Part shown: piece by piece, positions 85 to 11,501 of the stretch
Position numbering within the stretch: the first letter of the stretch is position 1
How the letters are laid out: each line of letters begins with the position of its first letter
UHGV virus genome: UHGV-0065581
Direction: 5' to 3' (one strand)
DNA from: a virus
Length of the DNA: 14,166 nucleotides
Notes under the pieces: model-generated
The model's database searches: none
The model's input: only the letters and a program-made list of their open reading frames with translations
What the model was told of the DNA's origin: nothing
Translations under genes and position numbers: made by a program

Positions 85-436
85 ATGACTCAAAACTATG
101 AAGTGATTGTGAAAGGGATCCGCAATTTTGAGAATAAAGTTACGGTAACTTTAGCGTTACGGGACAAAAAAACGCTTTGACGGTGAAATTTTTGACCTGG
201 ACATCTCGCTGGACCGTGTTGAAGGTGCCGCGCTGGAGTTTTATGAGGCAGCAGCCAGAAGGAGCATCAGACAGGTCTTCCTGGATGTTGCTGCCGGGTT
301 ATGTGAAGGGGATGAGCAGTCGCCGGAAAAGCGCCCCGTAATTTTAGAGGCGCAGAATGTATGGATAACCTACAAAGGAAAGCTACCGGGAAGAATTACT
401 GGTTCTCTGAAGACTCCTCCGGAATCACAACCTTAA
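85..436 (+). pseudogene. YdfR-like (DUF1327-type) lysis-cassette accessory gene, split by a frameshift in an A7 run
   Basis: ATG at 85 follows a GGGGAGAG Shine-Dalgarno and reads MTQNYEVIVKGIRNFENKVTVTLALRDKKTL* (stop at 178-180). The +1 frame is open from 155 to TAA at 434-436 and reads RFDGEIFDLDISLDRVEGAALEFYEAAARRSIRQVFLDVAAGL...PESQP with no ATG/GTG/TTG. Removing one A from the run at 166-172 fuses the two into a single ~116-aa protein. The N-terminus resembles E. coli Qin prophage YdfR as I remember it. Confidence 0.6.
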
Positions 437-3322: not shown

Positions 3323-5079
3323 TGGCAAAAGTGGCTGACGGGATCCGCTACGCCGAACGTGTTGTTGCAGGAGAAATTGTTGCTGGCGAATTTGTCCGCC
3401 TGGCCTGCCAGCGTTTTCTTGATGATCTGAAGTACGGCGAAAAGCGGGGGATTTATTTCAGTGAACCCCGTGCGCAGCACATCCTGAATTTCTACAAATT
3501 TGTGCCTCATGTAAAAGGGGCACTGGCAGGCCAGCCCATTGAGTTGATGGACTGGCATGTATTTATCCTCATTAATATTTTTGGTTTTGTCATTCCGCTG
3601 GTCAATGAAGAGACCGGGGAAGTTGTCATGCGCAGCGATGGCAGCGGACGTCCGGTGATGGTGCGCCGGTTCCGGACGGCGTACAACGAAGTCGCCCGTA
3701 AAAACGCAAAATCAACTCTGTCATCGGGTATCGGCCTGTATATGACGGGGGCAGATGGTGAAGGCGGAGCTGAGGTGTATTCAGCCGCAACCACGCGTGA
3801 CCAGGCCAGAATCGTGTTTGAAGACGCCAAAAATATGGTCAGAAAAGCCAGGTCGACACTCGGGCGGTTGTTTGATTTCAACAAGCTGGCGATTTACCAG
3901 GAGCAGAGCGCATCAAAATTTGAACCGCTTTCTTCGGATGCAAACAACCTGGATGGTCTGAACATCCACTGCGCCATTATTGATGAGCTGCATGCACATA
4001 AAACCCGTGACGTGTGGGACGTTCTGGAAACGGCAACCGGTGCCCGTCTGCAGTCCCTTTTATTTGGTATCACCACGGCAGGGTTTAACAAGGAAGGGAT
4101 TTGTTACGAGCAGCGTGATTACGCCATCAAGGTATTGCGTGGCTATAACAGCGACGTGGAGGGCGCTGTAAAAGACGACTCTTACTTTGCGATCATTTAC
4201 ACGCTTGATGAGGGAGATGATCCGTTTGATGAAACGGTCTGGCAGAAAGCGAATCCTGGCCTGGGCATCTGTAAACGCTGGGATGATCTGCGTCGTCTGG
4301 CGAAAAAAGCGAAAGAACAGGTCTCTGCGCGGGTGAATTTTTTTACCAAACACATGAATGTGTGGGTAACAGCAGAGTCTGCCTGGATGGACATGATTAA
4401 GTGGGAGAAGTGCGAATACATTGCCCCACGACATGAGCTGAAAACGTATCCCATGTGGGTCGGCGTTGACCTTGCTCATAAGATTGATATCTGTGCGGCG
4501 GCAAAACTCTGGCGAACGGATAACGGGCATGTTCATGCCGATTTTAAATTCTGGCTTCCGGAAGGACGGCTGGAACGATGCTCGCGGCAGCAGGCAGAAC
4601 TTTACCGGAAGTGGGCGGAGATGGATAAGCTGATTCTGACGGATGGTGATGTTATCGATCATGCTCAGATAAAAAGTGACTTACTGGAATGGATTGGTGG
4701 TGAAAACCTCAGGGAACTGGGATTTGACCCGTGGAGCGCAATGCAGTTCAGCCTGGCACTGGCTGAAGAAGGGATACCGCTGGTGGAGGTTCCGCAGACG
4801 GTCCGCAATCTGTCAGAGGCCATGAAGGAAACGGAATCACTGGTCTATGCCGGGCGTTTCCATCACAGCAATCATCCGGTCATGAACTGGATGATGTCTA
4901 ACGTTACGGTAAAACCGGACAAAAACGACAATATCTTCCCGAATAAATCCACGCTGGAAGCCAAAATCGACGGCCCTGTTGCGATGTTTACAGCAATGAG
5001 CCGGATGCTGGTCAATGGTGGTGAACCGGAGCTGGATCTGTCTGAACATCTGGTCAGCGTGGGCATCCGCTCGCTTTAA
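3322..5079 (+). CDS. terL: Terminase large subunit (ATPase and nuclease)
   Basis: 585-aa ORF immediately after terS, with a nucleotide-binding region near residue 100-130 (ARKNAKST) and an acidic nuclease-like C-terminal half. Size and position match the HK97-type large terminase. Confidence 0.9.
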
Positions 5080-5090
5080 CCGAGGTCATT

Positions 5091-5291
5091 ATGTTTCTGA
5101 TAATTCTCGCGCCACTGGTGGGCGTGCTGGGTGCGCTTTTGCTGGCGTATGGTGCCCGGCGGGTTTTGTTGTTGCCGGGGTGCTGTGCCTGTTCTGGTCG
5201 TGGCTGGTGGCGCGATATCTCGACCGTACACAGCCGTCTGTCGGCGGAGGTAAATAGTGTTCTTTTCGGGATTATTTCAACGAAAAAGTGA
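5091..5291 (+). CDS. Hypothetical small hydrophobic protein between terL and portal; reading frame and extent uncertain
   Basis: ATG at 5091 with GAGG 5 nt upstream begins [24 protein letters not shown] (a TM-like helix). The -1 frame over 5150-5257 also encodes a TM-like segment ([32 protein letters not shown]) whose TAG stop overlaps the portal GTG start. See findings. Confidence 0.3.
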
Positions 5292-11187: not shown

Positions 11188-11501
11188 CGCTTCCGGGGAT
11201 GCGTTTTCTGATGATGCTGGCGCTCAGGATGGGGCGCACATTGTCAGAGTTACGCCGGGAAATGTCCGCATCAGAAATCATGATGTGGGCAGAATTTGAC
11301 AGGTTCAGCCCGCTGGGGGACGAACGGGCTGATATCCGGGCTGCCCAGATTGTTTCAGCTGTTTACGGTGCGCAGGGGGTGGGAGAAGGAGCAGACAGAA
11401 GGCGTATCAGATCCATTTGCTGGACTGGAAAACGCGCTTTTAATAGTGTCTCAGTGAGTCAACATAACCGCTTCGGCGGTTTTTTTTCGTCCGGAGAATG
11501 A
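10801..11501 (+). CDS. Tail assembly chaperone GT-like fusion, made by programmed -1 ribosomal frameshift at A AAA AAG (11178-11184)
   Basis: The -1 frame carries TAA at 11175-11177, immediately before the slippery heptamer, and is then open to TGA at 11499-11501 (…KKVALPGMRFLMMLALRMGRTLSELRREMSASEIMMWAEFDRFSP...). This is the conserved G/GT arrangement between the major tail and tape measure genes. Confidence 0.7.
11178..11184 (+). promoter_or_regulatory. -1 programmed frameshift slippery heptamer A AAA AAG
   Basis: Canonical X XXY YYZ motif (same heptamer as E. coli dnaX) at the last codons of the G-like ORF, within an 8-A run at 11176-11183. Confidence 0.7.
11466..11487 (+). terminator. 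Terminator-like hairpin AACCGC-ttcg-GCGGTT with a T8 tract, inside the 3' end of the GT extension and 11 nt before the tape measure start
   Basis: 6-bp stem with a UUCG-type tetraloop and a run of eight T, read directly from the sequence. It overlaps codons NRFGGFFSS of the -1 frame. Confidence 0.5.

Follow-up and report, generated by a model that had tools for sequence, protein, structure and literature searches.

The viral genome UHGV-0065581, a stretch of 14,166 nt analysed here at its full length and called the window, carries between its holin and endolysin genes a ydfR gene (85-436) that is split into two reading frames by one extra A in a short homopolymer. The sequence is that of a lambdoid Escherichia prophage of the HK97-like kind, and the split gene, part of its late lysis operon, is very likely a real allele in which a YdfR-family accessory gene has lost its function. 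Replication slippage would have extended a six-base run (A6, codons Lys28-Lys29) to seven (A7). Translation from ATG 85 would then change frame after Lys29 and stop at TGA 178-180, giving a 31-residue peptide that comprises only the first two predicted beta-strands, while the remaining 87 codons, intact and startless, would go untranslated. The lesion would be tolerated, the gene being dispensable.

One gene in two frames

The features that bear on this reading are the following.

1-80, + strand: 3' end of a class II (phage P21 S-type) holin gene (PF04971 Phage_holin_2_1, E 1.5e-8)
70-77, + strand: Shine-Dalgarno-like GGGGAGAG of ydfR, read from the sequence, overlapping the end of the holin gene and upstream of ATG 85
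85-180, + strand: truncated ydfR frame, 29 authentic YdfR residues and 2 out-of-frame residues (TL), then TGA
166-172, + strand: A7 homopolymer, the frameshift site, from alignment to three phages
173-436, + strand: downstream portion of ydfR, lying in the +1 frame, 87 codons (173-433, RFDGEIF...PESQP) and TAA 434-436
500-1033, + strand: endolysin R, intact (phage lysozyme PF00959, E 1.5e-23)
1030-1491, + strand: Rz spanin, intact (PF03245, E 1.8e-49; coordinates mapped from the annotation of locus L150)
1250-1432, + strand: Rz1 embedded in Rz, intact (PF06085, E 2.8e-20)

An earlier note on this DNA had described a start at ATG 85, a stop after 31 codons, an A7 run at 166-172 and a startless +1 frame behind it, and every one of these coordinates is borne out by the sequence. 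The 31-aa product of the first frame is MTQNYEVIVKGIRNFENKVTVTLALRDKKTL, and its stop, TGA 178-180, lies six bases past the run. The +1 frame is open over 155-433 (93 codons, 87 of them YdfR, from CGC 173) and contains no ATG, GTG or TTG in that interval, according to a listing of ORFs of at least 20 aa and a reading of the codons by eye. Removing one A from the run yields a continuous protein of 116 aa, in keeping with the approximate length foreseen in the note, and the junction peptide of the restored frame is DKKRFDGEIFDLDISLDR. At the run, relatives read either A6 (GAC AAA AAA CGC, D K K R) or AAAGAA (D K E R), and GGGGAGAG is unchanged in the alignment with intact A6 relatives. The locus therefore combines a single-base homopolymer length change relative to intact orthologues with a premature stop, as is characteristic of a pseudogene. 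A 31-aa protein has been called here in several assemblies; annotation should instead merge 85-180 and 173-436 into one pseudogene.

The surrounding genes form a recognisable lysis cassette. The holin fragment (residues encoded by 3-80, stop TAA 78-80) covers positions 43-63 of the 64 in the PF04971 profile, and in relatives the holin is annotated as a gene of 216 nt that ends 4 nt before ydfR. Endolysin R has a hydrophobic, Ala/Gly-rich N-terminus, an E-8-D-5-T catalytic motif read from the translation, and the PDB relatives 7m5i, 3hde/3hdf and 4zpu (RrrD), a resemblance by which it is probably of the SAR type. An S21-like holin together with a lysozyme bearing a SAR-like N-terminus and the catalytic motif is the signature of a P21-type pinholin/SAR-endolysin cassette, and the flanking genes agree with the pinholin and SAR endolysin previously described, through their PF04971 and PF00959 matches and the resemblance of R to SAR endolysins. 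The order holin-ydfR (85-436)-R is the same in the Qin prophage of K-12 and in phage and prophage relatives. After Rz/Rz1 come bor/iss, an HNH endonuclease, a P27-type small terminase and the large terminase, with HK97-type head and tail genes farther downstream according to the annotation of the E. coli 23AR0998 prophage. Because the lysis (holin, endolysin, Rz/Rz1), packaging and head genes are open, ydfR appears to be dispensable and its lesion tolerated.

The gene that adjoins Rz/Rz1 downstream, bor/iss (1523-1816, - strand; increased serum survival lipoprotein), is replaced in other A7 prophages by a GNAT acetyltransferase or a DUF1398 gene, which marks the site as a slot for variable cargo.

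Homology across the junction

The resemblance to YdfR/DUF1327, initially proposed for the N-terminus, holds over nearly the whole Pfam profile. The repaired protein matches DUF1327 (PF07041) at positions 1-92 of 93 with 143.3 bits (E 2.8e-42), well above the gathering threshold of 25 bits, and so belongs to the family. Taken alone, the N-terminal piece matches positions 1-29 (42.5 bits, E 7.8e-11) and the C-terminal piece positions 30-92 (89.6 bits, E 1.5e-25), so that the junction sits exactly between profile positions 29 and 30. Since the two pieces match adjoining stretches of one profile, the split is not a chance juxtaposition of frames, and the break falls exactly at the A-run. Homologues that bridge the junction, whose absence the earlier note had named as grounds for abandoning its reading, are thus present both in Pfam and among protein relatives.

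The nearest of these relatives are intact 116-aa proteins annotated as 'YdfR family', with 97-98% identity to the repaired protein. A search of 5.8 billion protein clusters returned 318 relatives, essentially all from Escherichia or Shigella. PHROG 2091 and PHROG 406, both labelled 'unknown function', match residues 1-113 of the repaired protein; NCBIfam and PADLOC searches with YdfR gave no match.

Three phages, vB_EcoS-640R1, vB_EcoS-611R1 and PhiR49_2, are 97.5-98.3% identical to positions 1-520 of the window and carry an intact 351-nt YdfR-family CDS between holin S and lysozyme R. The sole indel in the alignment with these phages is their A6 against the A7 of the window. The comparison with related phages and prophages that had been suggested thus turns out one way, with A6 and an intact gene as the usual condition and A7 in the minority.

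The best known member of the family, YdfR of E. coli K-12 (b1555), lies in the same slot of the cryptic prophage Qin, between the class II holin gene essQ and the lysozyme gene rrrQ. It belongs to the same Pfam family and is 80% identical and 96% similar to the repaired window protein over residues 1-74. The K-12 gene is intact and encodes 103 aa with a different C-terminal tail, whereas the window copy is frameshifted. Furthermore, K-12 reads AAAGAA (Lys-Glu) where the window has its A-run, and therefore has no slippage-prone tract at this position.

Frequency of the run-length alleles

Alleles were counted in 5,426 complete E. coli genomes by the best match to exact-flank queries, namely a 60-mer for A6, a 61-mer for A7 and a 59-mer for A5. 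The A6 query was the best match in 1399 records, against 22 for A7 and 2 for A5. An A8 query of these genomes drew no match, probably owing to low-complexity masking of the run. Exact scans of IMG/VR returned A7 three times and neither A5 nor A8, and the A6 scan of the same database showed a six-base run in all matches listed. The compared loci, nearly all from IMG/VR, included at least 114 A6 copies and at least 8 AAAGAA copies, and four A7 copies were present in metagenome contigs. Among GTDB species representatives A7 was absent, E. coli, E. albertii and E. ruysiae all having the six-base run. Overall, A7 makes up roughly 1-2% of copies (about 1.5%) and A6 about 98-99%, a proportion seen across genomes and IMG/VR alike, and the suspicion that A6 is the normal state is thereby substantiated.

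Truncation was rare among the A6 copies of an unselected IMG/VR sample: nearly all were full length (104, 114, 116 or 174-183 aa, or longer fusions), and only 2 of about 100 were cut short elsewhere in the gene. This suggests that ydfR is normally maintained and that the A-run is its main weak point.

RefSeq (PGAP) labels the gene 'YdfR family protein; frameshifted' in nine of nine A7 copies inspected, including EC042_RS07115 of E. coli 042. Identical alleles are thus already flagged in public annotation, and the A7 ydfR is a known and ordinary pseudogene, the finding being real but ordinary. The earlier note ranked a pseudogene or a sequencing error above expression by slippage, an order that still stands. 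At this point, the window adds one more prophage accessory gene lost, in all likelihood, by homopolymer slippage, which by itself matters little.

Two A7 copies illustrate how the same lesion occurs in different surroundings. EC042_RS07115 and AM468_RS22490 (AR_0089) share with the window the same A7, at the same codon, and the same 31-codon frame. However, both have prophage contexts and 3' ends unlike those of the window. In 042 the gene is a variant of 316 nt with a SASA esterase gene as its neighbour, and in AR_0089 the place of bor/iss, downstream of Rz, is taken by a GNAT acetyltransferase gene.

Recurrence of A7 and the origin of the window allele

When the run itself was removed from the sequences, 139 ydfR copies collapsed into 76 haplotypes, nine of which carry A7. 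Three of these A7 haplotypes also exist with A6, without any other difference in 345 nt. In the 890 nt compared, divergence between A7 backgrounds reaches 14%, and within ydfR itself they differ at up to 79 of 345 positions. Haplotypes so divergent, some of them shared between the two states, require at least five independent changes from A6 to A7, and the distribution of A7 over nine haplotypes, three of them also found as A6, points to a recurrent slippage mutation, as opposed to a conserved signal for recoding. Shifted copies are few, scattered and nested among intact alleles, which is the distribution of a pseudogene.

The window copy can be placed within this diversity. Over 85-348 its ydfR is the same as that of the AR_0089/FDN-4 group, including A7 and a rare G at position 103 (G103; Leu7Val, L7V). 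Its only departures from this group, at 349, 361 and 388, agree with a common A6 haplotype. The full window haplotype is unique among the compared loci, one substitution from the nearest A6 copy and three from the nearest A7 copy. As judged from these shared positions, the A7 allele of the window is more likely an inherited or recombinant copy of a circulating allele. An independent event in the window was considered, its nearest neighbour over 890 nt being an A6 allele, and was given up in view of the shared G103 and A7. Locus L128, taken at one stage as identical to the window, was dropped, as it ends about 45 nt past the run.

These data also bear on whether the extra A exists at all. If it were a sequencing or assembly error, the true genome would have A6 and an intact ydfR, and the seventh A would be a homopolymer miscall. 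The lesion is indeed a one-base length change in a homopolymer, the closest long relatives are all A6, and two further homopolymers, at 2796 and 11480, also differ in length from those of the nearest complete-genome relative. However, 22 complete genomes have the same A7, that of E. coli 042 among them, as do assemblies from Logan, ENA and NCBI, and in the window it is linked to the rare G103 exactly as in the circulating haplotype. This linkage, with identity to a circulating group over 85-348, argues against a one-off sequencing error. The T7 at 2796 and the T8 at 11480 recur in relatives as well (3 of 20 and 1 of 2, respectively), and a 16-bp deletion elsewhere in the window is not a homopolymer artefact and points to real decay. 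A real A7, at about 1.5% of copies, is probably commoner than a miscall at one given six-base run in a finished assembly. Finally, the exact 31-aa product of the window has been called on 29 contigs (NCBI, ENA, Logan) and its L7 version on 32, while single intact YdfR sequences reach contig counts of 585, 973 and at least 999; occurrence on 29 independent contigs makes a real allele more likely than an error. The earlier suggestion of a sequencing error was thus retained as an option, but for an allele that circulates and recurs a one-off error is unlikely, and I regard a miscall in the window as improbable.

Could the shifted gene still be expressed?

If the A7 allele is real, it might still produce wild-type YdfR in a reduced and regulated amount through recoding, either because RNA polymerase drops one A by slippage or because tRNA-Lys slips by +1. 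The geometry allows this, since a tRNA-Lys moving from AAA 169-171 to 170-172 re-pairs perfectly and restores DKKRFDG, and the downstream frame is still intact. Furthermore, insertions (A7, 22 records) outnumber deletions (A5, 2 records). A shift by -1 would be no rescue and was discarded, as it enters the wrong frame, a 54-codon ORF at 177-341.

Known genes of the programmed-frameshift or slippage kind include prfB, with a +1 shift, dnaX and IS1, with A-rich -1 sites, and phage tail G/GT. The window resembles them in having an A-rich run where two frames overlap and in the perfect +1 re-pairing open to tRNA-Lys. It differs in that its shifted layout is not conserved in the family, that no stimulator specific to it is apparent, that A6 is the norm, and that it needs a +1 shift on a plain Lys-Lys run. 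Programmed frameshift sites are conserved across a family, but A7 is rare (about 1.5%), sporadic and nested within A6 haplotypes, and many family members, K-12 included, read AAAGAA and have no run at all. No conserved two-frame arrangement was seen among the homologues, about 98-99% of which have a single frame with A6 or AAAGAA. The flanks of A7 and A6 alleles are identical, so that a stimulatory element specific to A7 is unlikely; a weak GGGA 4 nt upstream of the shift codon is likewise identical in A6 alleles. For RNA polymerase to slip efficiently in E. coli, a run needs some 9 bases or more; for ribosomes to shift efficiently by +1, the A site must hold a slow codon or a stop, aided by a stimulator, as is the case for prfB. 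The asymmetry between insertions and deletions, once reduced to independent events, is about 5-6 against 1, which with such small numbers is not significant. Recoding is thus very unlikely as an account of the window gene, and a frameshifted pseudogene is preferred, from which the perfect +1 re-pairing (DKKRF) could possibly yield a trace of full-length YdfR.

The recurrence of A7 also invites the view that the tract is a contingency (phase-variable) switch, by which changes between A6 and A7, frequent enough to be useful to prophage populations, would set YdfR to ON or OFF. It would account for recurrent independent events and for the three haplotypes found in both states without any other change. 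However, the OFF state makes up about 1.5% of copies, A8 is absent from IMG/VR, A5 is nearly absent overall, and the pattern fits mutation striking the most mutable position of a gene under weak selection. Known contingency tracts are, moreover, much longer than 6-7 A, a length at which slippage is infrequent. Such a switch is extremely unlikely.

A related conjecture would have the A6 tract act as a recurrent ON/OFF or leaky site, at which A7, with its at least five origins and its excess over A5, gives a low dose of wild-type YdfR and so tunes a late protein that binds RNase E. If this were true, +1 slippage of tRNA-Lys or slippage of RNA polymerase would tune a late lambdoid phage protein. 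I mention it as a long shot, highly unlikely to be correct. The pseudogene reading accounts for the recurrence of A7 as repeated mutation of a slippage-prone run.

By records alone, A7 (22 records, at least five independent events) far exceeds A5, whose 2 records stem from a single study and whose product would end in 54 out-of-frame residues.

Other indels in the prophage

None of the compared loci or complete E. coli genomes is identical to the window, and its closest relative is the prophage of E. coli 23AR0998, with 99.1% identity over 11.4 kb. The two differ by four short indels in 14 kb and, besides these, by an unaligned break near 11378, where 23AR0998 is about 33 bp longer. The first indel is the A7 against A6 at 166 in ydfR. 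The second is T7 against T8 at 2796, in the intergenic region between the HNH and terS genes, where relatives have T7 in 3 of 20 cases and T8 in 17. The third is a 16-bp deletion at 5155 that frameshifts the gene of a 60-aa hydrophobic protein, and the fourth is T8 against T7 at 11480, near the 3' end of a gpT-like ORF (11199-11501), with T8 found in one of two relatives.

At the deletion point (about 5155) the window reads GGTG/CCCGG, the slash marking the junction, against GGTGCCTGGCTGATTTATCCCCCGG in five of five relatives, and the small gene is split into an N-terminal part in the frame of 5091 and a C-terminal part in the frame of the ORF 5015-5257. A deletion of 16 bp is not a homopolymer artefact and suggests that small accessory genes of this prophage are undergoing real erosion. 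The large structural, packaging, head and lysis genes of the window are all still open.

The small gene with the deletion occupies 5091-5257 of the window, between the large terminase and portal genes.

What intact YdfR may do

An AlphaFold2 model of YdfR, built from a 30-sequence alignment (mean pLDDT 57; about 65-85 for residues 5-66; below 50 for the tail), predicts strands at 5-14, 18-27 and 34-43, a helix at 50-72 and a disordered tail. Intact YdfR would be a small cytoplasmic protein with a three-strand-plus-helix N-terminal domain and a variable, disordered tail. A Foldseek search of PDB with this low-confidence model returned nothing at E <= 0.001, and a profile search of PDB sequences with YdfR gave no significant match.

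The earlier note called the function of the family unknown, which needs amending in part. A two-hybrid screen brought up K-12 YdfR (Gopel et al., RNA Biol 2026, PMC13232886), and in that work residues 1-72 suffice to bind RNase G and the N-terminal (catalytic) half of RNase E, a region covered by the 80% identity of the repaired window protein to K-12 YdfR. Along with Strep-YdfR, Rne(1-598) and DNase-resistant nucleic acid, reported as RNA, were purified, and overexpression of YdfR alters few transcripts and leaves growth unimpaired (PMC13232886). The link to RNase E comes from one paper and an overexpressed K-12 protein (PMC13232886), and for the family as a whole the statement stands to the extent that its function is barely known.

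Set against the model, the 31-residue product of the window would end after predicted strand 2 and could not contain the RNase E-binding surface. As a working inference, YdfR may be a dispensable late protein with a link to host RNA decay, inactivated in the window; it might modulate host RNA decay late in infection rather than lysis itself, an idea so far unproven. Natural A7 alleles in prophages that are otherwise open suggest that YdfR is dispensable for prophage maintenance, and this apparent dispensability bears on the 2026 report of RNase E binding (PMC13232886).

Tails and fusions in the family

The DUF1327 N-terminal domain occurs with very different C-terminal tails, in proteins of 104, 114, 116, 176 and 183 aa. 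The long-tailed forms of 176-183 aa include the proteins P0021 and P0044, PHROG 1085 (296 positions) is a further example of this variation, and in six loci (L034, L068, L098, L100, L101 and L114) the ORF runs for more than 233 codons without a stop. The family thus looks modular, with a conserved N-terminal domain of about 75 aa and swappable tails. In seven proteins (P0015, P0032, P0039, P0081, P0091, P0109 and P0118) the holin domain PF04971 is fused to DUF1327, and these fusions probably arose through mutation or miscalling within the 4 nt that separate the end of the holin gene from the start of ydfR.
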